Origin: Patescibacteria group bacterium
Lineage (GTDB): Bacteria; Patescibacteriota; UBA1384; 2-12-FULL-50-11
NCBI GenBank assembly: GCA_038058635.1
Contig: JBBUAP010000001.1
Coordinates: 13,606-77,605 of the forward strand
Length of the DNA: 64,000 nt
Reading direction: 5' to 3'
Part shown: piece after piece, positions 8,323 through 46,476 of the stretch
Position numbering within the stretch: position 1 is the first letter of the stretch
Layout: every line of letters starts with the position of its first letter
Position numbers and translations under genes: made by a program
The notes under the pieces: model-generated
What the model was told of the DNA's origin: nothing
Databases searched by the model: none
Seen by the model: the letters and a program-made list of their open reading frames with translations, nothing else

Positions 8323-8379
8323 TCCTGGATGTCGTGCCTGCGGCACTCGCTCTTCGCTGGCGTTCAGAGTGAGAACCTG

Positions 8380-8453
8380 CGGTCCCAGGGGGATTCGAAC
8401 CCCCGATCTTCAGAATGAGAATCTGATGTCCTAGGCCTCTAGACGATGGGACC
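8380..8453 (-). tRNA. tRNA-Glu (anticodon CUC)
   Basis: GGTCCCATCGTCTAGAGGCCTAGGACATCAGATTCTCATTCTGAAGATCGGGGGTTCGAATCCCCCTGGGACCG. The 7-bp acceptor is perfect. Anticodon loop TTCTCAT with U33 and A37. T-loop TTCGAAT. Confidence 0.85.
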
Positions 8454-8493
8454 AAAGTAAACTTGCTCTGATAGTTTAGCTCAAAAAGTCTTC

Positions 8494-8568
8494 TTAGTCG
8501 AGCAGTTCCCTGACTTTGGCGACGAGCTCCTTGGGGGTGACTTCGATTTAAAGAAAATATCCCTGAAC
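8494..8568 (-). pseudogene. decayed copy of the response-regulator gene 3' end
   Basis: About 80% identical to the 3' end of CDS 11277..11651. Minus-strand translation is VQGYFL*IEVTPKELVAKVRELLD*, with an internal stop, versus VQGYYLKTEITPKELVEKIEVLLTSS in the intact gene. Confidence 0.6.
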
Positions 8569-15854: not shown

Positions 15855-16541
15855 TTAATCCTTCGAGAAAGATATTAATTCAATAAACTTCGCTACCTCC
15901 AACTTTCTTGCTAACCTCACATCTCGATGCCTGAACTGTGGATTGTAACCAAGTCTCAAAAGCGCATTGTAAACATCCTCAAGTAAACTATGGTTGTAGC
16001 TTGTGTATTTTATCACGCAAGTATGATTATTTGAATCAACACAGAGGTTTCCGTCACTCTCAAACATCCCCTTTAGACAACGGACTAGATGCAAATTACT
16101 TCTTTTTATCCACGCGGGTACCCGTAGCTCGTGTCGTATCTTAATACCGGTCGGAAAATCAAGCCTAGACGAAATATGTTTTTGGTATAGATATACATCA
16201 ACACATTTGGAGTCCTTCCGGATCCGGATTGTAGGCTTCTTCTTAAAGATTTCCTCGGTTAACTTCGCTAACCGCCCAATTCTCTTCTGCTCCTTGGAAT
16301 TGAAGCATAGCGTTAGTTTCTCTGTTCTTGGGTATCGCTCGACACAGCCATCCCCTAGAAGTACGCCATAGAATTCGGCAGAATCAGGGCTGCGTTCTAG
16401 TTGTGCATAATATACTGGGTGAGCTACCTCCCATTTTCGAAAATTGCTTTGCATCCTACCCGACATAGTGAGCGACATTTTCATCAGGCTGGGATGATTA
16501 TCTTTAGTGAGACCCTTATTCCAAGGAGTTCTACCTTTCAT
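15855..16541 (-). CDS. LAGLIDADG-family homing endonuclease (double-motif, freestanding)
   Basis: Two LAGLIDADG-type motifs, FYGVLLGDGCV and CLKGMFESDGNL. N-terminal GRTPWNKG. AT-rich relative to its neighbours. It ends 3 nt before tRNA-Gln. Confidence 0.7.
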   Translation of the reverse strand: MKGRTPWNKGLTKDNHPSLMKMSLTMSGRMQSNFRKWEVAHPVYYAQLERSPDSAEFYGVLLGDGCVERYPRTEKLTLCFNSKEQKRIGRLAKLTEEIFKKKPTIRIRKDSKCVDVYLYQKHISSRLDFPTGIKIRHELRVPAWIKRSNLHLVRCLKGMFESDGNLCVDSNNHTCVIKYTSYNHSLLEDVYNALLRLGYNPQFRHRDVRLARKLEVAKFIELISFSKD

Positions 16542-20711: not shown

Positions 20712-20757
20712 TAGAAACATCCAGCAGTCACCCAGGTGATTGCTGGTGCAAAAAACT

Positions 20758-22311
20758 ATGAAAAATTACTACCTCCAGCCAGGATGGGAGATTATCCCCC
20801 GTGAGTCAGGAGTTGAACTTCTGCCACTGAACGATAGCCAGAAACCTCTGTTTTTGGAGAATTGTCGTGAAGTTCCAAGTGTTGCGGGGCTTTTTGAGGC
20901 ACTCCGTTCAGGAATCAGCACCAAGTCCGTCCTTCCGGGTTATAAAAGCACCCTTTCGAAGTTGATCGATCGTAAAGTAGTTGTACTTCACGATGAGCCC
21001 ACTGCCGCCAAGAAGATTCCCGGTTACTTAGGCGCGCTTTATAATCACTGTGTTGGTCACAACGGAATCGTCCACTCGGTCTCGACAGTCACACATTGCG
21101 AGGCGATAACAATTTCGGAGGCAATTGGGTTGAGCTCCAAGCTCATCAAGTACCAACCAACCTTAAACTACGGCTGGGGAGCAGACCCGAGCGCTGTGAT
21201 GGCAAAAATAAAGGCGATCGTTGAGTGCGTGGAGAGATTTGCGCTCTCAAATTACAGTTCCGAAAACTTACGCCTGGCTACTTGGAAAGAGGTGCAAAGA
21301 CACTCACTGACCGCCCGCGAGCTAAACACCTCGCCAAATACTTTGATCAGCGCCGGGGCAATAGAATGGGGCAAGCTAGATGAGTTAAACGGCTCAGGAT
21401 CCATTTACGCGCCACTCGACTTTCTCTATCACCCAGTCGACTACTGGTCTCTTGGTCGTCTGCCGGTCTGCCCAATGAATATCTCTGGGGTTGCCGGCCA
21501 CCAAACAAAGGAGGCCGCCGCGGTCAATGCGATTCTAGAGCTTTGTGAGCACGAGGCACTTATGGTGACTTGGTTTGGCAAGCGCAAGACTTCTACGATA
21601 AAGCGCGGAAGCATGGACACGACGTCCAAGAATCTTATTGATCTTTCGGAGCGTAACGGTTGGCGGATAATCGTTAAAGATATCAGCCTCGATCTTGTGC
21701 CTGTCGTCATGGCAATTGGGCTGGGGCCGGCGGGCAAAAGGGCGCTGACCATCGGCTCGAGTGCGGCCTTTAGTTCTAAATACGCCATCAAGAAGGCCGT
21801 CCTTGAAGTAGTGCGAACCATTCTGATGGATGAATCTCGGCTGACCAAACCGTCCGAAATCGAAGAAGAAAAAGTAAACGACATATCCACCCACGCCCAG
21901 TATTACTCCGCCCACAAGCGCCTGAAGCAGGTGGAATGGTTGTGGGAGGGAAGTCGGGAAGTTGAGGCTAAAGACCTCATGACTCACGGCCGTTTCATGA
22001 ATCGTCCCTTGGGTGAAGTCGCAAAATTGTGGGAGAAAGGTGGAGATCCCGAAAGACGGGAGTTGGCCTATATAAGCGAAATTTTGGGGCAGGCTGGCCA
22101 AAGGGTTTATCTAGGTGACATAACGCCGAAATCCATAAAAGACTCTCCTTTGCCGCTGGTAGTTGTACGAGCTCTTGTGCCCGAAATGACTCGAATGGTT
22201 GTTGGCTATAACCTAAGACCCGCCCCAACAACGCGCTACCGCTCGTTGCTAAAAAGATACTGCCCGAATAAGCAGGCATCAGCCCCGGCAAAAGTCCATC
22301 CGTTTAGCTAG
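20758..22311 (+). CDS. YcaO-domain protein (standalone)
   Basis: KAIVECVERFA (ExxER ATP/Mg-binding region) and GVAGHQTKEAAAVNAILELCEHEALMVTWF (YcaO core). No E1-like, dehydrogenase or TfuA partner is adjacent. Start chosen at the ATG at 20758; ORF opens at a TTG at 20740. Confidence 0.6.
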   Translation: MKNYYLQPGWEIIPRESGVELLPLNDSQKPLFLENCREVPSVAGLFEALRSGISTKSVLPGYKSTLSKLIDRKVVVLHDEPTAAKKIPGYLGALYNHCVGHNGIVHSVSTVTHCEAITISEAIGLSSKLIKYQPTLNYGWGADPSAVMAKIKAIVECVERFALSNYSSENLRLATWKEVQRHSLTARELNTSPNTLISAGAIEWGKLDELNGSGSIYAPLDFLYHPVDYWSLGRLPVCPMNISGVAGHQTKEAAAVNAILELCEHEALMVTWFGKRKTSTIKRGSMDTTSKNLIDLSERNGWRIIVKDISLDLVPVVMAIGLGPAGKRALTIGSSAAFSSKYAIKKAVLEVVRTILMDESRLTKPSEIEEEKVNDISTHAQYYSAHKRLKQVEWLWEGSREVEAKDLMTHGRFMNRPLGEVAKLWEKGGDPERRELAYISEILGQAGQRVYLGDITPKSIKDSPLPLVVVRALVPEMTRMVVGYNLRPAPTTRYRSLLKRYCPNKQASAPAKVHPFS

Positions 22312-29356: not shown

Positions 29357-30829
29357 TTGATTAGTGTACCGATCGACAGAATTGTGCCGTTAACCGACGC
29401 CCGCGACAACTTTAGTCGCCTCATTAGTGATATCGAAACCCTTTCTGACGGCTTGTACGTCCTGACCAAAGGCGGGAAACCGGCCATCGCTTTGATTAAT
29501 ATCAAGTATTTAGAGGAGATAATGGATGGCAAGATTGGTGAGAATCACGAATCACGGATCACGAATGCCGGATCAGATCATAAGCCGGAAATTAGTCGCA
29601 AAGTTCACGAGCCAATCCATCGGCCAGCGCCAGTTAAGTTACCGGAACTACCTAAACCCCCAATCGTGTCTAAACCCGACTTCGCTAAAGCTACGACGGA
29701 CAAGCCCAATTTCGAGGTGCCGCGGATTACAACAGCGCCAATCGGTCCCTCGGCTGAGATTACTTCGACTCCACTCCTCTCGACTGGGCTCCCCTCGACA
29801 CAGCTCGGGGTAAACGGGGTAAACCAGTTGCCAGGAGCTTCTTTGCCGTCAAGCAACTACGATGTTAAACCGACCATTAACCCGACCTGGACTGGTGAGG
29901 AAGCGACCGCAAAGCCGCTAGCACCTAGCAGTCTAGCTCCTAGCCAAAGCCCAACTTCTTTTGCACCGGTTCCAAAGCCAGAAGCTAGTAGCCAGTTGCC
30001 AGTTGCTCCGCCAGCTGGCGGATTGCCCCCGATTGCCCAATTAGACAAGCCCTCGCCCCTCGACTCCGCTCTGGGTAAACCTCCGCCGCCTCCGACACCA
30101 AGCAAACCGACGATCAATCCCTGGCCAATCATCCCGCCGAGGTCACCCCAAGTGACCGAGAAGGGATACGAGTCTACGACGACTGTCCCGCCGCGTCGGG
30201 ACGACGCAAGGGATACGAGCCCCGCGACTGTCCCGCCGCGACCGGTCAATACCGCCCTGCCTCTAGCCCCTAGCAGTCTAGCTCCTAGCCCATCATCTTT
30301 TACGACAGTTCCAAAGCCAGAAGCTAGTAGCCCCTCGACTGGTCTCCCCTCGACACAGCTCGGGGTAAACGGGGTAAACCCGCTGCCAGAAGCTTCATAT
30401 CCCAAGATGGTCGCTCCGCCGCCACCACCACCGCCGTCATCGCTACCAAGAATCCCTAGCAGTTTTCAAACCGTGCCAGTACCAATCAACGGCAATAAAC
30501 CCCCAACTACAGCGCCAGCTCCACTTCCCCCTCCCCCTATAACGACTGCTCCAGCACCGTTTGCTAATACATCGCCAGAAGCTCCTGTTGTCACTCCCTC
30601 GACTCCGCTCGGGACAAACCCCAAACCGGCCGATAGCATCTCCTTCGACCAGCCCCCAACGACCATTCCTGAACCAGGAGAAGATCTTCCAATGCCTTCG
30701 GCGTCTACTAGCAATCAACTTCTAGCAACTAGCACCGATTCGGTTCCTGCTCCAAAGCCAGAAGCTAGTAGCCAGTTGCCAGTTGCTCCTCCACAAGGCC
30801 AGGCGTCAGTTCAAGACTTAGAAATCTAG
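29357..30829 (+). CDS. Phd/YefM antitoxin-like N-terminal domain fused to a roughly 430-aa Pro/Ser/Ala-rich repeat region
   Basis: TTG start with AAGGAGG 7 nt upstream. N-terminus VPLTDARDNFSRLISDIETLSDGLYVLTKGGKPAIALINIKYLEEI. Three copies of the VPKPEASSQLPVAPP / TGLPSTQLGVNGVN repeat block, visible at the DNA level. Confidence 0.55.
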   Translation: MISVPIDRIVPLTDARDNFSRLISDIETLSDGLYVLTKGGKPAIALINIKYLEEIMDGKIGENHESRITNAGSDHKPEISRKVHEPIHRPAPVKLPELPKPPIVSKPDFAKATTDKPNFEVPRITTAPIGPSAEITSTPLLSTGLPSTQLGVNGVNQLPGASLPSSNYDVKPTINPTWTGEEATAKPLAPSSLAPSQSPTSFAPVPKPEASSQLPVAPPAGGLPPIAQLDKPSPLDSALGKPPPPPTPSKPTINPWPIIPPRSPQVTEKGYESTTTVPPRRDDARDTSPATVPPRPVNTALPLAPSSLAPSPSSFTTVPKPEASSPSTGLPSTQLGVNGVNPLPEASYPKMVAPPPPPPPSSLPRIPSSFQTVPVPINGNKPPTTAPAPLPPPPITTAPAPFANTSPEAPVVTPSTPLGTNPKPADSISFDQPPTTIPEPGEDLPMPSASTSNQLLATSTDSVPAPKPEASSQLPVAPPQGQASVQDLEI

Positions 30830-34818: not shown

Positions 34819-37800
34819 TCAGGGTACGATCTCGTACACTTTGGGGAGGGTGCCGGAGACGGAGGTGACGAGGTAACCGCGCTTGACCCCGCCGTAGTAG
34901 CCGACGACTTTGTAAGTATCGGTGGCGCCGAGGGCTTGGGCAGCGTTCAACACAAAGAGCAAGTCTTCGGCATCTGGTAATGTTGGCAGGTAGCGGGTGG
35001 CATCTGACTTACACTGGTAAAGATTGTTAAGTAACTCTGGGTCACCGTTGGCATCTTTTTTAATGTCACTTTTAGCACAGTAGCTATACCAGCCAGCTGT
35101 GGTACCCGTACTACCGCCCCGACTGCTGGCGATGGCATTTCCGACACCGACGCTGGTGGCCAAAATCGCTCCCCCTTTGTCGGTCGCGTTATTAATAGCC
35201 GTGTAGGCAACCAGGCCGGCGGATTTATCGCCATAATTCGTTGTCGCTCGACCGTAAAGCGTAGTGGCAGTACAGCCAAAGCTGAGGAGTTTGTCACAGC
35301 GGTACGGGCGGTAGCCGTCTTGATCCCAACGGCCATTAACACCAGCCCCTGACAGAGTCGGGACAGACATAATTAAACTGGCTAGAGGCGTACTTCCCTG
35401 GCTTTTAAATCTGGCACCTAAATCGCTTAAAATTGCCGTTCGGCCCCAACTCCAACCGTTATAAGGATTAGGATCGTTCGAATCAATTTGACTATTATTA
35501 CGACCCATACCACCCAACTGAGATAGTAATGGCTTTGAAGAGCAGACCGTACCAGCAGAACCATTGACTTGGCCAAGATAAGTACATACCTTGTTAGTGC
35601 CCCGATCGCTGCCCTGGAACTTCAGGGATTTATCAACGCCGCTAGGCCAGCCGGTAGCGTTGTCCTCGATGGTTTTAGTTAGAGAGACGGCGGTCGGATC
35701 GTTAGCGGCAAAGTTGTCGATAATATAGAAGCTGTTGTCGATATTATTTCCGCTATCGGGCCGGCCGAGCATTTTGGCACCGATCGAACTACCGTAGTCA
35801 GCGCTGGAAATGTCGGTTTTTTGTTTGCCTCCAAAGTAGACCAGTTTGGTTAATCCGCCGGATTTGTAGGCGACGAGTGAGCCACCAAATAGATTAGGGA
35901 TGTCGCTGGCCGAGTTGGGCGAGACATACTGGGGCGTCCAAGCGGCGTTACCAAAAGTCGGATTTGCTCCAGCGTTATCTTGTTTCCAGAGCGAGCCGTA
36001 CTGACCGAATGTCCCACCAACCATAAATAACTTACTGGCATTCTGAATGACTCTTGCCCCTGCAGTAAATATACTAGCCACCGCTCCGGCTCGTCGAGGT
36101 GAGGGGCGGTAAAGAAGGGTAGGATTTTTAGCGGAGAGGCGAATCTTCCAGGCCCCATTACCAACAACATCTTTGACCCACTCTGGAGCGTTGGTGGAAT
36201 CGTAATAATTCATTTGATGATCGGTGATAGTAACGAGACGATCGGTTCCACCAGCATTGGCAATTTGACTCGAGCTATAGCCGAACGGATGGGGAGAAGC
36301 GATCAGTTTGTCAAAGTAAATATTGAAAGTATTGTTTACAAAAGTTCGTCTTGTAACGATAAAGGTATAGGCGTTGACCGGGAAAGTCCCGGGTGGGTTA
36401 CCAGTATTAAGCCAAATCATCACCATCGCCCCGACACCCGGAACCCGACCAAGATTTGGCACGTTTTGGAGCGAGACATGATCAGAATAACCCTTGAAGG
36501 TACCTCCAATAGTCGTAGTTGTGTCAAACGACGGGGTCATAGTGACTTTGACGTTCTTTGAATCACCAGAAAGGCCGGAATCCCCTGGATAGTCCGGGTT
36601 ATGCCTCAGGCAGAGCTGTTTAGTTTCGTAGACTACACCACATGGCGAATTAGTAAACATGTCCTCAACAATGCCATGAAAAGTTTCGCGACTACCATCA
36701 CTTGTTCGTCGCTCTAGCGTTGCCCAGGCTCCAACAACAACTTTATCGGCATCATTGGGATCAATTTCCATTCGCCATTTCTTACTGTCGTCCCAGATTT
36801 TGTAAGTAATATTATTACGATCGGTGTAATCCTTATCTTTGACTGCCCCAAGGTTCACACCGCCACCTGTAATATTGCTAGTAGCAACTTGATAAGTGTA
36901 ATTCGACCGAATAACCTGAAAGTTGTAAACGCTACTAGTGGTAAAGTTGGGGTCGATTGTATTGTCCGTTGGCTGGGGCAACCAGGCGGCGCTAAGGGGC
37001 CCGGGATTAGTAGCCTTGTTCTTAAACTCTACATTCCACAAATCAGCGAAGCGTAGATTGTAGTTGATGTTTTTAGCGGCGCCTTCCCAGTATGAGGCCT
37101 TGGTTGGCGCTAGCGGTTGGAGAGCAAGGGTGGCACCGTAACGAGGCGAGGGGAAGGCGATAGCCGAATCGCTGGCAGCGATAGCACTGCCTTGATCTTG
37201 TACCACAAAGTCAGCAACGGCACTTTTGGTCTCATCGGAGACAAAATAGGCCTTACCATAAATATCGATATAGTTTATAAAGCCGGACAGGGTGTTGGTC
37301 AGACTAGTTGCGTCGTACTGCTCCAAGACAACCGAGTCTCCAACAGCGTAGCCGGTCGAGTCGCCACTCGAATCTAGTTGGCAAAAATAATGGCCAGCAT
37401 CTATGCCACCAACGCAGGTGTTGGTGGTGATCTGTCGCTTGACCACTTGGATCGCTAGAGACTTCATCGTAATCGATCCTTCAGAACCGTTATAACCGTA
37501 GACCATGAGTTCAACCATGTTGTTATTGTTGTAAACATTTTTTACTTTGCCCCAGGCGTAAAATTTACTGTCATCGGCTTTATTGCCGTACAGATAGACT
37601 TCATCGCCTTTGGCAAGCCCTGCGACGGCAGGATTAAGATAAATGAGCGAAGAAGCAGTACCATCAACCACAAGATCTTGGGATTCACCAGGTTTATTTT
37701 TTACTATCCAATTCCATCGCTCTAAGCCAGAGCGATCAGCCAGTGTTGAGGTAACACGAACGGTATAGCGTAGCCCACTCTGAATTTTCTTTGTTACGTC

Positions 37801-39981
37801 AATGGTTGAAGCATAGTCAATCTTTTCCCATGTATTAACCGCTGGACTCGCAGGATTTAGATCGAAGGCATAAACATCGTTGGTCACTCGCTTAGCAATC
37901 CTTAAACCCGGTCTGTTAGTGTAGAGACAGGTTGATTGGTTAGTCTCGCAGTTAATGTTGTTTGGTGCTAGCATTACTGCCTGGTGATAATAGCCGCCGA
38001 TCATCACTAAACGCTGGTTAACTGAATCGTATACCATCGAAGCGCCAGCGCGCTTACCAGGATTTGTATTACTTGGGGCCTTAAAAGTCCAAGCGAGATT
38101 CTGATCAGCCACTTCCGGATCGTAGATCCATAATTGATCGGATTCCGAGGCGTAGCCGCCATCGTAGTCGTTCATATTCACAGCCCCGCCGTAGTAAGCT
38201 ATTTTCGGGCCATTTTGTTCAAAATAAGTATAAGCCATCTCCCGGATTGGCAATGGGCTCTGGCGGAGTTTGTCAACGGTGAAATTAGTGAAGGATGTAC
38301 CGCTGCCGAAATTAACATTCGTCACTTTACCCCAAACCGGCTTATTGGGCGCTTTCGTCAAGCTAACTAAGTCGCCGACAGCCGGACAGATGGTCGCACA
38401 ATCGTGTCCGTTGGCGGGAGTAATGACAGTACCATTACTACCAATGCTGACCGAATCTATTGAATTAGCTGTTGAGAACTGCGGCGGCGCAAGCACAACG
38501 ATCGTGTCAACATCCGCCCCGGTTACCCAACCACCCGAAGCTTTATGTGGCGTATTATAATAGTTACCACTGAGATCATCACCACTACCCAACTTGAAGT
38601 CAACGCTAATCGCATCGACACCGTTACTGGTTGTGATTGGACCGATTTTTGTGAACTCTGCACTGTACAGTCGTCCCTGGTCTTGACCTCGGTACTTAGT
38701 TTCTAGTGACAGTGGTTGCTGATTTTTGTCAAGCAACAGCAAGGTAATCGATTGATTGAGACGCAATCCCTCAAGTGAGCCATAAACAAAACCACTAATG
38801 GTAGCACTGTTACTTCCGCCGGAAAATGTTTGGTTGTTGTCGGCCAATTTAATAAACGAAAAAGATTTTGCTCCCTTAACGATCGCCGTTCTCCAGCCTG
38901 AATCGGCGCTCGTCATCACTGGCTGGCTTTTCTTCGCCCAAGCTAGCGTGGCGTTTTCGGCATCATCAGTTTTGTACGGTGTTGAAAGATCGTCAGCCTC
39001 CGGGGTGTCGTTCCAGAGAGAGGGCTGAAGCCATTTCAGTTTGTAGTCGGTCGAGTTAACGAATAGGTCGCCAAAGCCGTATTGATAAAGTTGCGCATCA
39101 GATATTGAGGCGTCAATCCAGACCTTGAAATTGTTTTCTTTAATCGTTTTTTCAAATTTCTCTCGTAAATCTGTCGCTGTAATCCTATCGAACTTCGAAC
39201 CTGGAATAGTTGGAGGAAGCCCTGTGTCACTCCAGCGCGGCAAATAAGGAATATAGACAAAATCGACATTCTTGTAAAACGAGCTTACCCCGTCGGTGTC
39301 TTTTCTGGTTAAGAACTGATCTTGTGGTCCGCCGAGCTTAACCGTCCAATAATTCAGATCTTTTTGTTTGGCGCCAACTGGGGCGAAGGGATTGTAGAAG
39401 TGTCCCATATTGGTCAGCTGGGAAACGGTTTTGGCTTTGTCGGTGTCCGGAAGGGCGCCGTTACCAGGAATAATCCCCAGCGGGGTGTCGTTGACGATAT
39501 TGGCGTAGTTAAAAATCATCGCTGGGTTGGCGTCGTTGGTCTGGTTTTGTAAATACTGGCCGTCATTGGTCCATGGCAGTAAGACGATGACGCCGTTACA
39601 CCGTGGCAGAGAGGTGGAAATCTTTTGGTAAGTGGAGACGATTTTGCGCGGGCTGGGGCGAAAGGGAGTTGAGATCGGGGTCGTTTCTTCATTTTTATCA
39701 AGATCGAAAACCGTCCCGGTCGTCGCCGGCGGCGTGCCAGCGGCCAGTTTTTCTTTGAGCTTGACCAAAGCCGAGTCAGCGGCAGATTTGGCGACAGTGG
39801 CGTTAGCAATTTTGTCGGTCGAGGCCAGTTGGTCAAACCTAACCGCAATCGACGCCAAAGTCGTCGTCGTCAAAATGGCGATAATCATTACAGTCAAAAG
39901 CAACGCTGAAGCTGGACGGTTACTTTGATTAAACATCGTCGCCTCCCTCGATTCGTCCTTGATTCTCACATTGCTGCGCAA
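34819..39981 (-). CDS. giant (1720 aa) membrane-anchored surface protein, last gene of the pilus-like operon
   Basis: N-terminal signal anchor ASALLLTVMIIAILTTTTLASIAV followed by about 1650 aa of Gly/Asn/Thr/Ser-rich beta-type sequence. No catalytic motif. Co-directional with, and 78 nt downstream of, the pilin-like genes. Confidence 0.55.
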   Translation of the reverse strand: MRSNVRIKDESREATMFNQSNRPASALLLTVMIIAILTTTTLASIAVRFDQLASTDKIANATVAKSAADSALVKLKEKLAAGTPPATTGTVFDLDKNEETTPISTPFRPSPRKIVSTYQKISTSLPRCNGVIVLLPWTNDGQYLQNQTNDANPAMIFNYANIVNDTPLGIIPGNGALPDTDKAKTVSQLTNMGHFYNPFAPVGAKQKDLNYWTVKLGGPQDQFLTRKDTDGVSSFYKNVDFVYIPYLPRWSDTGLPPTIPGSKFDRITATDLREKFEKTIKENNFKVWIDASISDAQLYQYGFGDLFVNSTDYKLKWLQPSLWNDTPEADDLSTPYKTDDAENATLAWAKKSQPVMTSADSGWRTAIVKGAKSFSFIKLADNNQTFSGGSNSATISGFVYGSLEGLRLNQSITLLLLDKNQQPLSLETKYRGQDQGRLYSAEFTKIGPITTSNGVDAISVDFKLGSGDDLSGNYYNTPHKASGGWVTGADVDTIVVLAPPQFSTANSIDSVSIGSNGTVITPANGHDCATICPAVGDLVSLTKAPNKPVWGKVTNVNFGSGTSFTNFTVDKLRQSPLPIREMAYTYFEQNGPKIAYYGGAVNMNDYDGGYASESDQLWIYDPEVADQNLAWTFKAPSNTNPGKRAGASMVYDSVNQRLVMIGGYYHQAVMLAPNNINCETNQSTCLYTNRPGLRIAKRVTNDVYAFDLNPASPAVNTWEKIDYASTIDVTKKIQSGLRYTVRVTSTLADRSGLERWNWIVKNKPGESQDLVVDGTASSLIYLNPAVAGLAKGDEVYLYGNKADDSKFYAWGKVKNVYNNNNMVELMVYGYNGSEGSITMKSLAIQVVKRQITTNTCVGGIDAGHYFCQLDSSGDSTGYAVGDSVVLEQYDATSLTNTLSGFINYIDIYGKAYFVSDETKSAVADFVVQDQGSAIAASDSAIAFPSPRYGATLALQPLAPTKASYWEGAAKNINYNLRFADLWNVEFKNKATNPGPLSAAWLPQPTDNTIDPNFTTSSVYNFQVIRSNYTYQVATSNITGGGVNLGAVKDKDYTDRNNITYKIWDDSKKWRMEIDPNDADKVVVGAWATLERRTSDGSRETFHGIVEDMFTNSPCGVVYETKQLCLRHNPDYPGDSGLSGDSKNVKVTMTPSFDTTTTIGGTFKGYSDHVSLQNVPNLGRVPGVGAMVMIWLNTGNPPGTFPVNAYTFIVTRRTFVNNTFNIYFDKLIASPHPFGYSSSQIANAGGTDRLVTITDHQMNYYDSTNAPEWVKDVVGNGAWKIRLSAKNPTLLYRPSPRRAGAVASIFTAGARVIQNASKLFMVGGTFGQYGSLWKQDNAGANPTFGNAAWTPQYVSPNSASDIPNLFGGSLVAYKSGGLTKLVYFGGKQKTDISSADYGSSIGAKMLGRPDSGNNIDNSFYIIDNFAANDPTAVSLTKTIEDNATGWPSGVDKSLKFQGSDRGTNKVCTYLGQVNGSAGTVCSSKPLLSQLGGMGRNNSQIDSNDPNPYNGWSWGRTAILSDLGARFKSQGSTPLASLIMSVPTLSGAGVNGRWDQDGYRPYRCDKLLSFGCTATTLYGRATTNYGDKSAGLVAYTAINNATDKGGAILATSVGVGNAIASSRGGSTGTTAGWYSYCAKSDIKKDANGDPELLNNLYQCKSDATRYLPTLPDAEDLLFVLNAAQALGATDTYKVVGYYGGVKRGYLVTSVSGTLPKVYEIVP

Positions 39982-40058
39982 GGTTCGAATTAATCATCAC
40001 GGTAAGGAGAAGTGCGGATCCTGTTTTTGACAGTTCTTGTTCGTACATCTTTTTCATT

Positions 40059-41732
40059 TTAACCGGGCTCCAATCCACCGCCACAAACTGCAAGTGGGTC
40101 GCTGATAGTCAGATTAAAACTTTTGGTTGCGGTTTTAAGTGGGTCGGCGTTATCACGCACCCTAATGGTGAGACTATAAGAGTAAGGATACAATTTGCCG
40201 GCATCACAAGTCGGAGTACCGGAGATTATACCGCCAGTACTTAAAGCCAGCCCTGGCGGTAAACTGCCGGAATCAACTGTCCAAGTGTAAGATCCGCTCC
40301 CGCTAGCGGTCAGTTGGAATGGGACATAGACAGCATTGATACTGCCACTTGGCAGAGGGCTTGATGTCGTAATTGTCAGTGTTTGGCCACCACTTGGCGA
40401 GACCGTTAGAGAGAAAGTTTTCTCCGCATAGTTAGTTAGATTACTACTTTCGGCAGCCCTGATAAGGAAGCTGTAAACGCCAGCCGTCGTGGGAGTGCCG
40501 TCAATTTTACCACCAGCACTCATACTCATGCCGTTAGGCAAACCGCCGGATATAATCGTCCAGGTGCAGCTGCAAGGCATGGCAGGATCAACGCCTCTAT
40601 CAGCTTTTAATTGTCCCCCGGGTAATAGCACCCCCGGATTGTAACTTACTCCCACGGTGGCGTCTGGCAGTGGGGTAGTAGTTGTGATTACTATTTGATC
40701 ATCAATGACAAAGATCGACAGAGGTTGGGAGGCAGTACCAATGATGGGGGTGGCACTATCCGTAACCGTCACAGTAAAGTTATAGGTATGGCCAGCAGTG
40801 GGCGGGTTTGGTGTACCGGTAATTACTCCGGTAGTCGTCGACAAAGCCAGACCGTTGGGCAGAGACCCTGAAGTTATCGCCCAAGTGTATGGTGGCATAC
40901 CACCACTAACGACAACGCTTGTAGCATATGGCGGAGTACCGGCATGAGCATTCGGCAAGGTTGTCGTCTCAATTTTGAAAACGACTGTTGCTTCGTTGAC
41001 CAAGCCAATCGGCAATCCCTCCTGAATGGTTAGGGTTGGTTTTCGGGCCTCGCTAGTGCCGCCACTGCCTTTTTGGGCCGCCTCCAGCGTCAGCGAATAG
41101 CGCAGGAGCTGTTTGGTCACACAGGAGGAGGTAATGGTAGTGCAACCAACACTTTTCACTGCAAACTGGGCGGCTTTAACCACGGCCTGAACATTGGTTA
41201 GGCGATTTTGATAAATCGGACTAGTTGTCGGACAGAGACCGCCGGAATCGACATTATAAATCAGGATAGCGATGACTGTTCCGACTTTATTGATGGTATA
41301 TTTCTCCTCGCCTGTGGAGTCGGTAGTGGCGATGGCTCGGCCGATCACAGTACAGGTGTTGCCGGATTGTAAGTCGGAAAAAGCTTTGACCTGAATGGCG
41401 GCAAATGTCGTACCACCGTCGTTGGGAATAATTGGGGTGACTGCACCAACTGGAGCGTTAGCGACAGTTCGCCGAATGGCCTCGCCCACCCCGCGAGTGC
41501 TCTCGCTAATCGATGAACGGGCATCGGCTTTTTGAATCATGCCGTTAGTACCGACAACGGCGAATAGAGCAATACTTAAGGCGACAAGCAGTAAGGCGAC
41601 ACTGACAATAAGCTCAATCAAGGTGAATGCTCGGGTACGAGAATTTCTAATTTCGAATTTCGAATTTCGAAAATTTTGAGTTTTGAGTTTTAGTTTTGAC
41701 TTTTGACTTTTGACTTTTAAGTTAACTTTCAT
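40059..41732 (-). CDS. prepilin-like protein with a 35-aa Lys-rich leader and tandem Ig-like (He_PIG/cadherin-like) repeats
   Basis: Start at MKVNLK, overlapping the upstream stop (ATGA). Leader MKVNLKVKSQKSKLKLKTQNFRNSKFEIRNSRTRA then FTLIELIVSVALLLVAL. Three LPNGLALS..G.I.GTP repeats. Confidence 0.6.
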   Translation of the reverse strand: MKVNLKVKSQKSKLKLKTQNFRNSKFEIRNSRTRAFTLIELIVSVALLLVALSIALFAVVGTNGMIQKADARSSISESTRGVGEAIRRTVANAPVGAVTPIIPNDGGTTFAAIQVKAFSDLQSGNTCTVIGRAIATTDSTGEEKYTINKVGTVIAILIYNVDSGGLCPTTSPIYQNRLTNVQAVVKAAQFAVKSVGCTTITSSCVTKQLLRYSLTLEAAQKGSGGTSEARKPTLTIQEGLPIGLVNEATVVFKIETTTLPNAHAGTPPYATSVVVSGGMPPYTWAITSGSLPNGLALSTTTGVITGTPNPPTAGHTYNFTVTVTDSATPIIGTASQPLSIFVIDDQIVITTTTPLPDATVGVSYNPGVLLPGGQLKADRGVDPAMPCSCTWTIISGGLPNGMSMSAGGKIDGTPTTAGVYSFLIRAAESSNLTNYAEKTFSLTVSPSGGQTLTITTSSPLPSGSINAVYVPFQLTASGSGSYTWTVDSGSLPPGLALSTGGIISGTPTCDAGKLYPYSYSLTIRVRDNADPLKTATKSFNLTISDPLAVCGGGLEPG

Positions 41733-42193
41733 TCTATTATCCTCGCCGTAGTCATCTGTCTCTGCACCCCTTTGCCCCAAGAGGTGGTGGCGTTGACGAG
41801 GTAGCTAGTACCGGTCAAACGGATGACGACTGATGGCACAAATTGTAGTTTGCTCGTTCCAATTTGAATAGTGGCTTTGGTTTTCTGTAGGACACAGGAT
41901 CCGCTGGTGTCCACCGGGCAGACAACATAGCAAGTTTTACCTTCGCCAATACAATCAAGACCGGGGGGGGCTGGAGTGCCGTAGGTCGTTGCGAAATTTG
42001 CTCCTTTAGTCCTTTTCTCCAGCGCCACGAAAGAGAGTGACTGCTCGTTCAATCCTAGGGCAATTTGTTTGAGCTCCGTCGTTTCGGTCAGCCGGGCGGC
42101 GGCGTTATTGAGCGTTGCCATGGCCACCCCGACCATAATCAAAAAGGCAATCGCAAAAATCACCTCGATTAATGAGAATGATCGCTTCATCAT
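41729..42193 (-). CDS. minor pilin/pseudopilin-like protein
   Basis: MMKRS then FSLIEVIFAIAFLIMV class III-type N-terminus with E5. 154 aa. Start overlaps the upstream stop by 4 nt. Confidence 0.6.
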   Translation of the reverse strand: MMKRSFSLIEVIFAIAFLIMVGVAMATLNNAAARLTETTELKQIALGLNEQSLSFVALEKRTKGANFATTYGTPAPPGLDCIGEGKTCYVVCPVDTSGSCVLQKTKATIQIGTSKLQFVPSVVIRLTGTSYLVNATTSWGKGVQRQMTTARIIE

Positions 42194-43530
42194 TGTGGGG
42201 TTTCCACACAGGGATTAATTATTTGAGCCAACCCCCGACCAACGAACAATTGGGCTAATCTGTTCTTCAAGCGATCGGTAGACCTAGTAATTGGAACAAT
42301 CGGATTGCAGGCGGTGGCGTTACCGCCCGGGTCAATCTGCACAATCGGCGGTGGCAGGACATCGCTGGGCGGGTCAGAGATTATCGAGCCGCAAGAAAGG
42401 ACGAAGTCCTTAGACCTCGGTTTGAGTCGGAGGTCAGTCAGATTATCACGACCATTGACCGAAGGCTGAGTAAGCTTAATTGCATCAAGTGCTGATACTA
42501 TCACGGTCACTGTTTTGGGTTGGTTGGCAACTGTAAAAGTGTCAGTCGTAAATTGGAAGCGAACCGGGTATTTGGTTGGGTCACCAGGGTCATATGGAGC
42601 CAGGTCATAAAAGTAGCTGATAGCTAGTGGCTGTGAAGGCGCCGTACCAACTTTCCATTCAATGTTGTAGGCAACAAATAAATTAGGGTCGCCTTCGGAG
42701 GTAGCGTCATTAACCCGGTCATTGGCTCTCGGATAGCTTATGGTGATATCTGATTGCGAAGTACCACAGGCAACTGATACCGTAAATTTGCTCGCATCAG
42801 CCACATCGGTCCATTTTGGAACGAGATCGTCAACAACTGGCGTGAAATAACTTTGGGGGTTAGAGCGAGAGATAGCGACTTGATGAGTGACACGATCGAG
42901 CGTCACATAGCGTTTGTCGCCGACTTTTTGGCTTCCTAGAGTGACAACTAAATAGCGAGCGACGGTGGCGCCGTTATCTTTGTCTTTGCCTGCCCAGTTG
43001 GCCAAGAAAAGTTGGCCAGATTTGAACGCCGGGTTGGCAAAACTGCCACAACTGAAGCCGTTCTCGCCGACGGCAAATCGTATCACCGCCTGGTCGTCAT
43101 CGACAGTTTGATTGGAGGGGTAGAACGACGAAACATAAATTCCGCGCGGCAATTTGATGTTGCGCAGGGTGGTAAATCCGCCCGGCACATCACTGCCATC
43201 GCATTGGACTAGCCCGCGTTCGAGAGCGACGGTGTTGGTCGTCACTTCGCCGTTAGCCGTACCGTTGGTGGCGGCTTTGGTAAACTTGCCGAACGAGACC
43301 TGGAACACCTGTGGAGCGCCCGAGCTGTCGTTTTTGTCCGGTGCTTGAGAGCGAGTCTGGGCTTCGATAATCACCTGACGAACTTGGCTGGCGCTGGAAT
43401 CCAATAACATTCGATCGCTCCGATTGAAGAAATTGGGGATACTAGTAATGCCAATAACGGTGATGACGGCAATCACCACTAAAAGCTCGACCAGGGAGTA
43501 GGCAGAACGATTAGTAGGCCACGACAACAT
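42190..43530 (-). CDS. prepilin-like protein (large)
   Basis: ...TNRSA then YSLVELLVVIAVITVIGI N-terminus. Start ambiguous (ATGs at 43593, 43548, 43530), all overlapping the upstream gene end. Confidence 0.5.
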   Translation of the reverse strand: MLSWPTNRSAYSLVELLVVIAVITVIGITSIPNFFNRSDRMLLDSSASQVRQVIIEAQTRSQAPDKNDSSGAPQVFQVSFGKFTKAATNGTANGEVTTNTVALERGLVQCDGSDVPGGFTTLRNIKLPRGIYVSSFYPSNQTVDDDQAVIRFAVGENGFSCGSFANPAFKSGQLFLANWAGKDKDNGATVARYLVVTLGSQKVGDKRYVTLDRVTHQVAISRSNPQSYFTPVVDDLVPKWTDVADASKFTVSVACGTSQSDITISYPRANDRVNDATSEGDPNLFVAYNIEWKVGTAPSQPLAISYFYDLAPYDPGDPTKYPVRFQFTTDTFTVANQPKTVTVIVSALDAIKLTQPSVNGRDNLTDLRLKPRSKDFVLSCGSIISDPPSDVLPPPIVQIDPGGNATACNPIVPITRSTDRLKNRLAQLFVGRGLAQIINPCVETPQ

Positions 43531-44452
43531 CGAGGTCTCCTGCCACATCTTTGCAATCTGGGTTAGCAATATAGCTACTTGCACTACTGACAATTGGCTC
43601 GTAAGTTACTTTATTATCGGGAGTAATAACCGAGCTATCCGCAGACTTTCTTTTGCATTGGTACAGGTATTTGCCGTCATAAACATTAGCACCGCCCAGG
43701 ACATATAGAGAACCGTAAAAGTTGTAATTAATGTCAGTCAGGACATTGGAATCTGAATCTGAATCGTCGTCAAGATGGCGAACAACTGAACCAGAGCCAC
43801 GATAGTAGCGTTTTAGCGCAGTAGTTTGGTTGAATAAGAAACTTGCGTCAGAGTCGGTAGCCGAGTTTTCTAGATTTGAGGTCACGACCACATCGCCATA
43901 GTCATAAGAAACTCGATACTGGTATTTATCCCAAGCATTGGCCGACATCGGCTTGGGATCGGCCAGCAGGCGGTCCATATAACGCAGGCAGATCAGAAAA
44001 TGATTTACTGAAACGAACCCAGGCTTGAGCGTAATCTTTGGCGCACCCGCCGTCGCATTATTAAGTTGATCGATTGTTGGGTCGAGTGGGTTAGTGCTGG
44101 AGAATTGGGCGGAGTCGCCGCCGCTAGCTGGTAAACCATTGCAGGCCACAATATCGGTGCCGAGACCGAAGTTTGAGTTAATATTCAAGTCGGTTGCGTT
44201 GCCCTGATCGCCTAGGCTAAATGTCGGATTCGGATAAATCTTGAAGTCGGCTTTGAACAGATTGATTCCTGATAAGAAACTGTTGATCTCGGCTTTGCGT
44301 TTGGCATCACGACTCCGTTTCTGAACCGGCACAACGGCGACCGTTACTAGGGTGATCAGTATGCCGATAATGGTAATGACAACCAACAATTCGATCAGCG
44401 TGAACGCAGATCGAGAATTTAGAATTTTGAATTTAGAATTTAGAATTTTCAT
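43511..44452 (-). CDS. type IV pilin-like protein (probable major subunit) with a repetitive Lys-rich leader
   Basis: MKILNSKFKILNSRSA then FTLIELLVVITIIGILITL. The leader is encoded by (AAATTCT)5 on the coding strand. Confidence 0.65.
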   Translation of the reverse strand: MKILNSKFKILNSRSAFTLIELLVVITIIGILITLVTVAVVPVQKRSRDAKRKAEINSFLSGINLFKADFKIYPNPTFSLGDQGNATDLNINSNFGLGTDIVACNGLPASGGDSAQFSSTNPLDPTIDQLNNATAGAPKITLKPGFVSVNHFLICLRYMDRLLADPKPMSANAWDKYQYRVSYDYGDVVVTSNLENSATDSDASFLFNQTTALKRYYRGSGSVVRHLDDDSDSDSNVLTDINYNFYGSLYVLGGANVYDGKYLYQCKRKSADSSVITPDNKVTYEPIVSSASSYIANPDCKDVAGDLDVVVAY

Positions 44453-44564
44453 TTCCCCTCGAATTCCATACTAACAGGATTCATGACTTACTTCTTGATT
44501 CTTGATTCATAACTGCGAGGCATTGCCGAGAAGCGAGCGTTAGCGACATTCTTGATTCTTCCTG

Positions 44565-45770
44565 CTAGAATGATCCCGTTAAGCTGTAGATTGGTTGAAG
44601 AACAGATATAACAATAAACGCCACTGCTCCACCGAGGATGACGATGATAAAAGGCTCGATAAGAGCCGAGAAAGTGCGCAGTTTACCGTCGACTTCCTGC
44701 TCAAAATAATCCGCCAAGGTTGAGGCCGAGCCGCCCAAATCGCCTGACTGCTGACCAACAAAAAGTAACTGGGTCATCATCTTTGGGAAATATTTGTTAT
44801 CTTGCATCGTTGAAGTCACGGCCGCGCCTTGTTCGAGCGAGTGCATTAGTAATTTGAGCGTCCGGCGGAAGATTGTATTAGGGGTGGAGTCGGCGATGAT
44901 GCCAACGGCTTCCAGAATCGGCACGCCTGCCGCCAGCAATAGTGACAGCGTTCGATTGAAACGAGCCAGATAAACCTGGAGAGTCAGCGGTCCGAAGATC
45001 GGAAAATGTAATCCGAGATAGCTACTAACTTCCTTGCCTGGCTTGGTCATGGTGAAGAGTTTGATAATTACGACCAGCCCGATGACGATAGCAATCAACA
45101 GTACCCACTCGTTAATCAAAAAGTCGGTGATCGCTAGTAAAATCTTCGTCGAAACCGGCAATTCGGTTTCTTGGGAGCTGAAAATGTCTTTAATCGGCGG
45201 GATAACTTTGGTCAAGATAATTGCTCCGACGACAATCATCACCACGAAGATAAATGCCGGGTAAATCATCGCCCCACGAACCTTGCCGACGAACTCGGCC
45301 GCTCGAGCGGTGCTCGAGGCCAAATCGTCCAGAACCTTAACCATGTTACCCGTCGCTTCACCAGCTCGGACTACCCCAACCTCCACTTCGGGAAAGGTCT
45401 TGGGCTGACCAGCCATTGCCACCGACAGCGCAAAGCCGTTTTCCAGCGACTGGTGGATTTGACGCATCACTTTGCGGAGTCGCTTGTTCGGTGTCTCGGC
45501 GACTATATCAATTGCTTGAGTAATACCAACGCCAGCTTTCAACATTGTTGAAAGCTCCCGGTACATAATCGACCGGTCTTTGGCCGAAACTTTGCCGGCC
45601 GAGAACTTGCCTAAAACCGACCCCTCTTCAACGATCGAGATGACAGTGTAATTGCGGCTTTGAAGTAGCCGACGAACTGCCGCAAGCGTACCAGTCGCTC
45701 GGCCAGAGCGGATATGACCTTTTTCATCTTTGACTTTATACCGAAAAAAAGGCTTTGCTGTTTTCTTCAT
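44565..45770 (-). CDS. pilC: type IV pilus assembly platform protein PilC (GspF family)
   Basis: Two GspF-type repeats and three TM segments. Start at MKKTAK with GGAGGG immediately upstream, inside ORF 44565..45911. Confidence 0.8.
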   Translation of the reverse strand: MKKTAKPFFRYKVKDEKGHIRSGRATGTLAAVRRLLQSRNYTVISIVEEGSVLGKFSAGKVSAKDRSIMYRELSTMLKAGVGITQAIDIVAETPNKRLRKVMRQIHQSLENGFALSVAMAGQPKTFPEVEVGVVRAGEATGNMVKVLDDLASSTARAAEFVGKVRGAMIYPAFIFVVMIVVGAIILTKVIPPIKDIFSSQETELPVSTKILLAITDFLINEWVLLIAIVIGLVVIIKLFTMTKPGKEVSSYLGLHFPIFGPLTLQVYLARFNRTLSLLLAAGVPILEAVGIIADSTPNTIFRRTLKLLMHSLEQGAAVTSTMQDNKYFPKMMTQLLFVGQQSGDLGGSASTLADYFEQEVDGKLRTFSALIEPFIIVILGGAVAFIVISVLQPIYSLTGSF

Positions 45771-45972: not shown

Positions 45973-46476
45973 ATGATCTTGGAGGTCTCGCAATTATTAA
46001 GTGCGGCGGTCCGTTCGGCTGATGGCAAGAAAATTGCTTCGGTTGATCGGGTGATTATTGACGGCCGCGACGCTCGTATCGCCGGATTTCAAACCAGTGC
46101 TCGGACGGTCTTAACGCGTTTTGGCCGAATTGATTACGTTGACACCCTGGCGGTGGAGAGGGGTGAAGTCGTGATTGATGGCGATAAGGTAATTCAGAAA
46201 GATTTGAAACCGTTTGATTTGTTGCGACGACAGTACGGCGTCGTTTTGGGCGTGACTGCTAAGACTGAATCGGGTCGCAAAATCGGTAAAGTTACTGACC
46301 TAGCGATTGATGCCGACACCGGGCTGATTGTCCGCTTTTACCTCGGCCAGTTCCTGAATGAGCGGATTATTCCTCGTCAATTTCTGGTTTCTATCACCCC
46401 TAAACAAGTTGTATTTAAGGATATCGTCATCGCTCCGACTTTCGACCAGATTGCCGTTAGCCAGTCCGCCGCCTAG
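45973..46476 (+). CDS. PRC-barrel domain protein
   Basis: Two PRC-barrel-like segments (VDRVIIDGRDARIAGFQ and GKVTDLAIDADTGLIVRFYL). Confidence 0.45.
   Translation: MILEVSQLLSAAVRSADGKKIASVDRVIIDGRDARIAGFQTSARTVLTRFGRIDYVDTLAVERGEVVIDGDKVIQKDLKPFDLLRRQYGVVLGVTAKTESGRKIGKVTDLAIDADTGLIVRFYLGQFLNERIIPRQFLVSITPKQVVFKDIVIAPTFDQIAVSQSAA

Follow-up and report, generated by a model that had tools for sequence, protein, structure and literature searches.

The locus examined here raises the question of whether a row of genes for pilin-like proteins, none of which carries glycine immediately before its predicted cleavage site, belongs to a type IV pilus, and what part the giant protein encoded at the end of the row might play. 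CPR/Patescibacteria are believed to lead a life attached to other cells, and among attachment organelles only type IV pili have, to our knowledge, been demonstrated by experiment in these bacteria, namely in the Saccharibacteria. The genes in question belong to a groundwater bacterium, Candidatus Berkelbacteria, of a class for which we know of no cultured member, and lie within a stretch of 64 kb that was analysed as a whole (hereafter, the window).

ORF analysis of the minus strand between positions 34819 and 45770 (or 45911, depending on the start of the first gene) recovers the six co-directional genes described in the original prediction, all of them intact, which encode a PilC protein, four prepilins and a giant protein. 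This combination of PilC with four prepilins supports the initial description of the cluster as type IV pilus-like. Start/stop overlaps, which had been claimed for all of the genes, are present at three junctions (20 nt between pilin1 and pilin2, and 4 nt each at pilin2/3 and pilin3/4), but PilC is separated from pilin1 by 112 nt and pilin4 from the giant gene by 122 nt, the latter gap containing a 42-codon ORF. The 4.76-kb pilin block is base for base the same in five independent assemblies of this Hainich groundwater Patescibacteria (Berkelbacteria) genome, which rules out an assembly error. Furthermore, the arrangement of pilC, four pilin genes and the giant gene is syntenic in 18 related genomes, where it adjoins efp-rpsR-ssb-rpsF-xerC, and extends to relatives with 32% identity in the giant protein and 49% in PilC. 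In every relative operon, the giant gene is the last of the pilin row, frequently with translational coupling to pilin4. The G+C content of the operon equals that of its surroundings. We read the cluster as a conserved, probable type IV pilus operon.

The platform gene (44565..45770, minus strand) encodes a polytopic inner-membrane protein of the PilC/GspF family, 401 aa long from Met48, the start from which its orthologues are annotated, within an ORF open to 45911. It contains two T2SSF stretches (PF00482, 170 bits against a gathering threshold of 25.2, E 2.4e-50), as is characteristic of platform proteins of ~400 aa. Among NCBIfam models, it scores best with GspF (285 bits), followed by PilC (257 bits), and reaches 129 bits with ComGB (cut-off 240), missing every equivalog cut-off (GspF, PilC, HofC and ComGB). 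The search for PilC homologues returned orthologues in the same operon layout only, and no second PilC.

Each of the next four genes encodes a protein with Arg or Lys at positions -2 to -4, Phe or Tyr at +1, Glu at +5 and a hydrophobic run, the N-termini reading RSA/FTLIE, RSA/YSLVE, KRS/FSLIE and TRA/FTLIE for pilins 1 to 4, respectively (slashes mark the predicted cleavage sites). A six-frame scan of the window for [FY][ST]L[IVLM]E with a hydrophobic stretch directly behind it gave exactly four instances, all within these genes, and none in 100 shuffles, confirming the four prepilin-like N-termini noticed initially. Pilin1 (43511..44452, minus strand; 313 aa), with the leader MKILNSKFKILNSRSA and a mature sequence beginning FTLIELLVV, is probably the major pilin, judging from sequence comparisons. 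It matches the N_methyl family (PF07963, 28.6 bits; gathering threshold 21.2) and TIGR02532 (26 bits; cut-off 16.3), its best NCBIfam match is the GspG N-terminus, and the profile of its orthologues matches major pilins of solved filaments, including Geopilin (7e-9), Myxococcus xanthus PilA (1e-7), Thermus PilA4 and PulG (8.6e-6). Its gene also comes directly after that for the platform, ahead of the other pilin genes. At 297 mature residues, pilin1 is bigger than expected of a major pilin, and a different one may be encoded outside this locus.

The remaining three prepilins resemble minor pilins. Pilin2 (42190..43530, minus strand; 446 aa, from MLSWPTNRSA/YSLVELLVV) scores just under the N_methyl threshold (19.0 against 21.2 bits), shows weak NCBIfam matches to the N-termini of ComGC, PpdA-type proteins and ComGE, and is kept in all orthologous operons. 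The small pilin3 (41729..42193, minus strand; 154 aa), in which MMKRS precedes FSLIEVIFAIAF, has no match in Pfam; its motif, hydrophobic helix and four invariant Cys residues are kept in 11 orthologues, and its size and position are those of GspI/ComGE. Pilin4 (40059..41732, minus strand; 557 aa) is modular, with a 35-aa leader ending in TRA/FTLIELIVSV, a core of ~200 aa and three Ig-like He_PIG domains. Searches with this protein recovered both the N_methyl segment (25.0 bits, threshold 21.2; TIGR02532, 20 bits, cut-off 16.3) and the three He_PIG domains (E 7e-26), the Ig region resembling the SraP adhesin (4m03, 2.4e-7), alongside weak NCBIfam matches to GspJ, XpsI and the Verru_Chthon cassette protein C. 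The mature orthologues range from 201 to 522 residues, corresponding to zero to three Ig modules.

The residue at -1 is Ala, Ala, Ser and Ala in pilins 1 to 4 (codons GCG, GCC, TCA and GCA, that of pilin1 at 44405-44407), whichever start codon is used. The absence of Gly noted originally is thus genuine, and with the Ala of the giant protein included, all five sites of this genome lack the residue that a strict definition of prepilins demands. Since the codon before Phe/Tyr at +1 is GCN or TCA, no shift of the start site can restore Gly, and the proposal that the proteins are type II secretion pseudopilins with ordinary G-1 leaders concealed by misplaced starts fails in this genome. A scan across 18 related operons, in which any residue was permitted, found G at 51, A at 20 and S at 10 of the 81 orthologous sites, and nothing else. 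Gly is therefore the usual residue (63%) and probably the ancestral one, with small residues apparently tolerated; in the related operon L012, for example, the pilin1 leader is that of the window except for Gly in place of Ala. The window genome departs from Gly at five out of five sites, compared with ~33% of sites in the 17 others, a difference that may call for an explanation of its own. Three genomes carry mostly non-Gly residues at these sites.

An alternative reading is that the pilins are uncleavable, the operon decaying or its products working unprocessed. The dominance of Gly at -1 in bacterial pilins and its absence from all five sites here speak for this reading, but none of the six ORFs is disrupted, their sequences agree between five assemblies, and the restriction of the 81 sites to G, A and S argues for continued selection for cleavage. 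Moreover, PilD cuts after Gly or Ala, and both Ala and Ser belong to the published motif of Gram-positive pilins, [GAS]-x4-[DE] (PMC3244431). We therefore consider loss of cleavage very improbable. The residues, interchangeable among orthologues and allowed by that motif, do not breach the requirement of prepilin peptidases, as had been suspected; from the alignments, Ala or Ser at -1 is a tolerated variant and not a new rule. The exchange of G, A and S over 81 sites amounts to a natural mutagenesis series, suggesting that in this clade the prepilin peptidase is satisfied by any small residue, and pilin-prediction tools requiring Gly would overlook such proteins.

The last gene (34819..39936, minus strand) encodes a protein of 1705 aa from ATG 39936, or 1720 aa from TTG 39981, in which a leader ending in NRPA precedes SALLLTVMIIAILTTTTL. 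Its 39 full-length homologues are all about 1500-1760 aa long; among 1.84 billion proteins, no more than 34 representatives of the family were found, and public records label it 'hypothetical protein'. The protein was initially thought to have no pilin N-terminus, but in 37 homologues, a basic leader ends in G (27) or A (10) followed by S[AVI]LLLTVM. HMM searches returned no direct match to Pfam PilX_N (PF14341) or to GspK, and the link to these families is transitive or lies under curated cut-offs: the orthologue in L009 matches GspK weakly (E 0.0033, 17 bits against a cut-off of 130), whereas a profile of the N-terminus finds proteins P0055, P0054 and P0057, of which P0055 exceeds the gathering threshold of PilX_N (26.2 versus 25.5) and aligns with the giant N-terminus over 58 residues at 94% hhalign probability. 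The predicted fold of residues 1-560 had no PDB match, and a conserved N-terminal region of ~330 residues gave no solved-structure match in the searches run. The C-terminal ~120 residues are conserved as well. Residues ~560-1370 (35827..38259) are confidently modelled as a six-bladed beta-propeller of Kelch-type repeats with inserted beta domains. Identity with PilY1 or Neisseria PilC was rejected, given that there was no match to PF05567 and PilY1 was not among the top structural matches.

These data have to be weighed against the possibility that the giant protein stands outside the filament as a co-transcribed, membrane-anchored surface adhesin, its N-terminal hydrophobic segment serving as an uncleaved signal anchor. 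The missing direct Pfam match to a pilin family is consistent with such an anchor, as are the lack of Glu5 and of a pilin fold in the model of the N-terminal 560 residues; for PilX1 and PilX2 of TM7x, too, cleavage by PilD is not predicted (PMC11623550). On the other hand, the restriction to G or A before S-A-L-L-L after a basic leader has the form of a class III cleavage site and repeats the exchange seen at -1 in the true pilins of the operon. The alignment to a PilX_N member and the invariable position of the gene at the end of the pilin row, often coupled to pilin4, also disagree with an anchored adhesin, which we regard as unlikely. The protein is thus better read, on its N-terminal features, as a giant minor pilin of PilX_N/GspK type than as a separate surface protein; the earlier idea of a pilus-associated adhesin stands in the form of a probable tip adhesin.

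The genes that would power and process such a pilus are not nearby. Pfam searches covering every ORF from 150 aa upwards in the 64-kb window revealed no PilB, PilT, PilD or PilM, motif scans of all loci compared revealed no pilB, pilT or pilD, and none of these three was present in the 10 kb beyond the low-coordinate end of the window, in agreement with the original observation. The lack of an ATPase or a peptidase in the window and these 10 kb counts against the pilus explanation. Across CPR bacteria, PilB, PilT, PilC, PilM, PilN, PilO and PilD are widespread and PilQ is absent (PMC6744442).

Two related machineries share the gene order of the cluster. In a type II secretion pseudopilus module, the order gspF-G-H-I-J-K would be identical, and the best NCBIfam matches of PilC and pilin1 agree with such an assignment. 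However, all equivalog cut-offs are missed (GspG 37/88.85, GspH 29/80, GspJ 19/295), no secretin, GspC, GspL, GspM or GspE was found in the window, pseudopilins do not carry external domains of 1,400 residues, and CPR bacteria have neither PilQ/secretins nor an outer membrane (PMC6744442), which makes a secretion module scarcely credible. A short competence (Com-type) pseudopilus, serving DNA uptake instead of adhesion, deserves more weight and is nonetheless improbable. The succession of platform, major and four minor pilins, the last without Glu5, equals comGB-GC-GD-GE-GF-GG, there are weak NCBIfam matches to the N-termini of ComGC, ComGD and ComGE, and CPR bacteria, in which competence genes are widespread, are thought to depend on DNA uptake (PMC6744442). 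Nevertheless, ComG equivalogs score far under their cut-offs (ComGB 129/240, ComGC 24/75, ComGD 19/70, ComGE 20/49), PilC fits the GspF and PilC models better than ComGB, neither comGA nor any other ATPase gene is adjacent, and the 1,705-aa propeller protein and the Ig-like modules, which resemble ligand-binding modules of adhesins, have no Com counterpart.

Collectively, these considerations lead us to favor, with some reservation, a reading of the cluster as the membrane platform together with every filament component of a type IV pilus in a monoderm-like CPR bacterium. PilC would form the inner-membrane platform and pilin1 the major subunit. Pilin2, pilin3, pilin4 and the 1,705-aa protein would correspond to the 'core' set of minor pilins (H-, I-, J- and K-like, respectively, in type II secretion terms), and these four would assemble first, on PilC, to prime polymerisation and finally make up the complex at the tip. 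The giant protein may cap the filament because, like GspK, PilX_N proteins and ComGG, it lacks Glu5. At the tip, its Kelch propeller and the Ig-like He_PIG modules of pilin4 would be displayed, both presumably binding a host or surface ligand. A PilD-type prepilin peptidase, putatively encoded elsewhere in the genome, would cut all five precursors, and a PilB-type ATPase, likewise encoded elsewhere, would extend the filament. If this peptidase is indifferent to which small residue (G, A or S) stands at -1, then Ala and Ser would be functional variants of an ancestral Gly.

The DNA encoding the leaders has features of its own. The long, Lys-rich leaders of 16 and 35 aa pointed out originally are real, the ATG of pilin4 having a GAGGA ribosome-binding site and overlapping the pilin3 stop codon (ATGA), and are encoded by 7-nt tandem repeats. 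According to TRF, the pilin1 leader DNA (44414..44448, minus strand) is an (AAATTCT)x5 repeat (5.0 copies, 92% match), which is also found in L012 and L022, whereas that of pilin4 (41641..41723, minus strand) comprises two 7-nt arrays, (TTCGAAA)x4.4 and (AAAGTCA/AAACTCA)x7.3, with different 7-8-nt arrays at this site in L007, L022 and L023. The 42-codon ORF upstream of the giant gene (39929..40057, minus strand) holds a second copy of the giant-protein leader, ending in Gly (MKKMYEQELSKTG, followed by SALLLTVMI). It is followed by an insert of ~80 nt, in a layout common to L022 and L023, that is kept at the DNA level and shows no sign of a structured RNA (z-score +1.13, no covariation signal and no Rfam match). 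These features could be two DNA-level devices that vary the expression and identity of pilus subunits in the lineage. Slippage in the leader arrays of pilin1 and pilin4 would bring the translationally coupled start codon into frame or take it out again, resulting in phase variation, and the 5' end of the giant gene would be an exchangeable cassette, the old Gly-ending leader persisting as the conserved 42-codon ORF. We offer this idea as a speculation with long odds. If true, a contingency-locus system would govern a pilin-type tip adhesin of 1,705 residues; we know of no such system previously described in a CPR bacterium, so that it would be the first.

The operon, with its core-genome conservation next to efp, provides a concrete candidate for a host-recognition device in Berkelbacteria, consisting of a giant Kelch-propeller pilin-type protein and a minor pilin with Ig modules. 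As in T2SS gspF-gspGHIJK and Bacillus comGB-comGCDEFG, a platform gene is followed by genes for a major (pseudo)pilin and four further members, of which the first three are minor pilins that have Glu5 and the final one lacks it, and the G/xALL N-terminus of the giant family recalls GspK. Unlike in those systems, no ATPase, secretin or L/M components are adjacent, and the pilins are much larger and modular. The Verru_Chthon cassette (TIGR02596-TIGR02600) similarly combines three prepilin-type proteins with a ~1,300-aa protein A that has a similar hydrophobic N-terminus, and weak matches link pilin1 to its proteins C and D, pilin4 to C and an orthologue of the giant protein to A (E 0.04), but the scores are far under the cut-offs and the cassette occurs in other taxa. 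In Streptococcus sanguinis, which has no outer membrane, PilB and PilC likewise consist of adhesive domains joined to a pilin N-terminal module (PMC8179133); the present proteins carry different modules (Kelch propeller and He_PIG) and are much larger.

The closest published analogues appear to be PilY1 and PilX2 of TM7x (Saccharibacteria). In Pseudomonas and Myxococcus, the four core minor pilins FimU-PilV-PilW-PilX prime assembly and form the tip, and PilY1, a large beta-propeller protein, serves as the tip adhesin; PilY1 is a separate non-pilin protein with a propeller family of its own, whereas here the propeller is fused to a PilX_N-like pilin segment. The minor-pilin locus of the T4P-2 pilus of Nanosynbacter lyticus TM7x (PilA2, PilV2, PilW2, others and PilX2), also from Patescibacteria, is a row of about five pilin genes, several of whose minor pilins resemble T2SS pseudopilins, as they do here. 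Its largest member, the minor pilin PilX2, combines a non-canonical signal peptide with a beta-propeller at the C-terminus and is required for host binding; its role as the tip adhesin that binds the host has been proposed and in part demonstrated (PMC11623550). Going by the published description, the likeness has its bounds: PilX2 carries a seven-bladed RCC1 propeller, as opposed to the six-bladed Kelch propeller with inserted domains, and the giant protein is far larger (1,705 aa), with its conserved N-terminal region of ~330 residues. The Berkelbacteria cluster, which in contrast to the TM7x locus includes PilC in the same operon, is a variation on known type IV pilus systems.

The six ORFs of the operon all lie on the minus strand of a Patescibacteria (CPR) genome, surrounded by housekeeping genes (efp, rpsR, ssb, rpsF, xerC, tRNA synthetases, dnaE, and GroEL) and sharing the G+C content of their flanks (0.47-0.51). 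pilC (44565-45770, open to 45911), which encodes two T2SSF domains, is followed by pilin1 (43511-44452), pilin2 (42190-43530), pilin3 (41729-42193), and pilin4 (40059-41732), with the prepilin N-termini RSA/FTLIE, RSA/YSLVE, KRS/FSLIE, and TRA/FTLIE, respectively (slashes mark cleavage sites), and by the gene for a giant protein (34819-39936). Start/stop overlaps, originally described for the whole operon, join three of the gene pairs (by 20, 4, and 4 nt); gaps of 112 and 122 nt separate the other two. When the whole window is translated in six frames, the extended prepilin motif occurs 4 times, always within the four pilin genes; 0 of 100 shuffles contain it. The 4.76-kb block of pilin genes is identical in 5 independent assemblies, and Hainich groundwater metagenomes contain the window DNA on contigs 13 to 423 kb long. 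At 100% identity, the 1,705-aa giant protein matches "hypothetical protein AAB669_00225" from the MAG of a "Patescibacteria group bacterium", and its closest relatives are labeled Candidatus Berkelbacteria. Divergent from pilC is a gene for a PRC-barrel protein (45973-46476, plus strand), a position kept in the related loci L007, L008, L021, and L023.

As originally noted, none of the four pilins has Gly at -1: the residues A, A, S, and A are fixed by the codons GCG, GCC, TCA, and GCA directly preceding the +1 residue, so that no start-codon choice yields Gly and correcting the start sites does not recover G-1 leaders. Starting from the giant protein and PilC, we reached 17 more operons that share all six genes and their synteny, related operons extending to 32% giant-protein identity and the sister lineage to 49% PilC identity. 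A scan placing no restriction on the -1 residue returned, for the 18 genomes including that of the window, G, A, and S at 51, 20, and 10 of 81 sites in all five proteins (pilin1, 13/3/0; pilin2, 8/4/4; pilin3, 8/3/3; pilin4, 12/3/3; giant protein, 10/7/0). Given these counts, Gly at 5/5 sites in the most distant operon (L009), and a pilin1 leader in L012 that differs from ours only by Gly for Ala, Gly is the usual state and probably the ancestral one. The window genome lies at the extreme, non-Gly at 5/5 sites, and two relatives sharing its giant-gene leader cassette have non-Gly at 4/5. Judging from these sequences, Ala and Ser have arisen repeatedly, with only small residues permitted, as expected if cleavage is maintained. 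Cleavage by PilD after Gly or Ala is already in the literature, and the motif derived for Gram-positive pilins is [GAS]-x4-[DE] (PMC3244431); Ala or Ser at -1 is thus a tolerated variant rather than a breach of the rule. In pilin1 of another related operon (L015, 3576-3660), the cleavage motif is duplicated in tandem and in frame (MPRRA/FTLIELLMPNRRFGRGVRKNG/FTLIELLIV), a further sign that pilin 5' ends are rearranged.

The two very long Lys-rich leaders noted originally are real and are translated from AT-rich tandem repeats, which encode Lys/Asn-rich stretches of 16 aa in pilin1 ((AAATTCT)x5, 44414-44448) and 35 aa in pilin4 ((AAAGTCA/AAACTCA)x7.3 plus (TTCGAAA)x4.4, 41641-41723). Translation of the latter is indicated by its ATG, which follows GAGGA and overlaps the pilin3 stop (ATGA). 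In other genomes, different arrays of 7-8-nt units occupy this position, and leaders in distant genomes are only 3-12 aa. In several genomes, heptanucleotide repeats of differing unit fall within the leader-coding DNA or immediately upstream of it (window 41641-41723, 44414-44448, and 44492-44508; L007 8606-8683; L012 4974-5008; L017 6662-6690; L019 2056-2185). In the related operon L022, the pilin3-coupled ATG is not in the reading frame of pilin4, and pilin4 begins instead at an internal ATG, an arrangement compatible with slipped-strand switching though no proof of it; the leader repeats could be a phase-variation device.

The giant protein was thought to lack a pilin N-terminus, but it does carry one of pilin type: 37 homologues share a short basic leader ending in G (27) or A (10), followed by S-[AVI]-L-L-L-T-V-M and a hydrophobic helix without Glu5. 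Direct Pfam scans of the giant protein gave no pilin-family match, and a GspK model matches an orthologue at E 0.0033. Out of 1.84 billion proteins, a profile of residues 1-560 recovers no more than 34 representatives. These include sister-lineage proteins of 1,470-1,840 aa with the same N-terminus, Kelch matches, and the C-terminal motif V-T/V-G-Y-Y-G-G-V. The profile reaches some small proteins; one of these scores above the Pfam PilX_N threshold and aligns with the giant profile over the first 58 residues (hhalign, 94% probability). An AF2 model of residues 1-560 (pLDDT 71) had no PDB match. Conservation is highest in the N-terminal ~340 and C-terminal ~120 residues, which we infer to be the filament-docking part, the variable middle being the predicted ligand-binding head. 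About 4-10 kb beyond the low-coordinate end of the window, the same genome encodes a second giant candidate surface protein (2,238 aa; L020 16988-22838), with PA14 and weak RHS/YD-shell matches.

Between pilin4 and the giant gene sits a 42-codon ORF (39929-40057, minus strand) that contains a second giant leader, with Gly at -1, and the first nine residues of the mature protein (SALLLTVMI). An ~80-nt insert then precedes the working start of the giant gene, whose ATG is overlapped by the stop of the ORF. As DNA, the insert is more conserved than the codons flanking it, and an RNA structure for it was unsupported. The layout recurs in L022 (~4359-4490) and L023 (~8359-8495); the three genomes are not each other's closest relatives, and relatives closer overall to the window lack it. 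It looks as if recombination replaced the 5' end while preserving the chain of translational coupling.

pilin1, as the first pilin gene in the operon, likely encodes the major subunit; across its first 60-110 residues, its profile hits the major pilins of filaments with solved structures. Four Cys are invariant in the small pilin3, and pilin4 has a core of about 200 residues weakly similar to GspJ/XpsI and, depending on the genome, 0 to 3 He_PIG Ig modules, a region resembling the SraP adhesin. As originally stated, pilB, pilT, and pilD are not adjacent: neither these nor PilM were found among window ORFs of at least 150 aa, by motif scan, or within 10 kb past the low-coordinate end. The ATPase(s) and peptidase would have to be encoded elsewhere in the genome; in CPR, PilB, PilT, and PilD are reported to be widespread and PilQ absent (PMC6744442).

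Elsewhere, the window encodes a 490-aa protein (29357-30829, plus strand) whose N-terminus weakly resembles Phd/YefM antitoxins (E 0.003, below cut-off) and is followed by a long, internally repetitive low-complexity region rich in Pro, Ser, and Ala; a free-standing LAGLIDADG endonuclease ORF (15855-16541, minus strand) adjoining tRNA-Gln; and, in this very small genome, a YcaO cyclodehydratase-family gene (20740-22311, plus strand) beside a TrmB-type regulator gene. The xerC-like integrase of locus L024 (9964-12171; 735 aa) contains an intein bearing a LAGLIDADG domain.

The original observation holds and the pilus-operon interpretation was largely right; its two odd points, Ala/Ser at -1 and the giant N-terminus, are explained. 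On balance, we favor the view that this cluster supplies a CPR type IV pilus with its platform and all of its filament subunits, with a predicted priming/tip complex ending in a giant putative PilX_N-type pilin, which would display a propeller. Of main interest are this predicted giant tip protein and, speculatively, the leaders encoded by repeats. The gene order (platform, major, H/I/J-like, K-like) is that of gspF-GHIJK and comGB-GG; membership in T2SS or ComG is not supported, scores falling below the curated cut-offs and the defining partners being missing from the window. PilY1 is an analogue of the giant protein in function, not a relative. The closest published analogue of the operon is the T4P-2 minor-pilin locus of TM7x, whose PilX2, required for the host to be bound efficiently, combines a C-terminal beta-propeller with a non-canonical signal peptide (PMC11623550).
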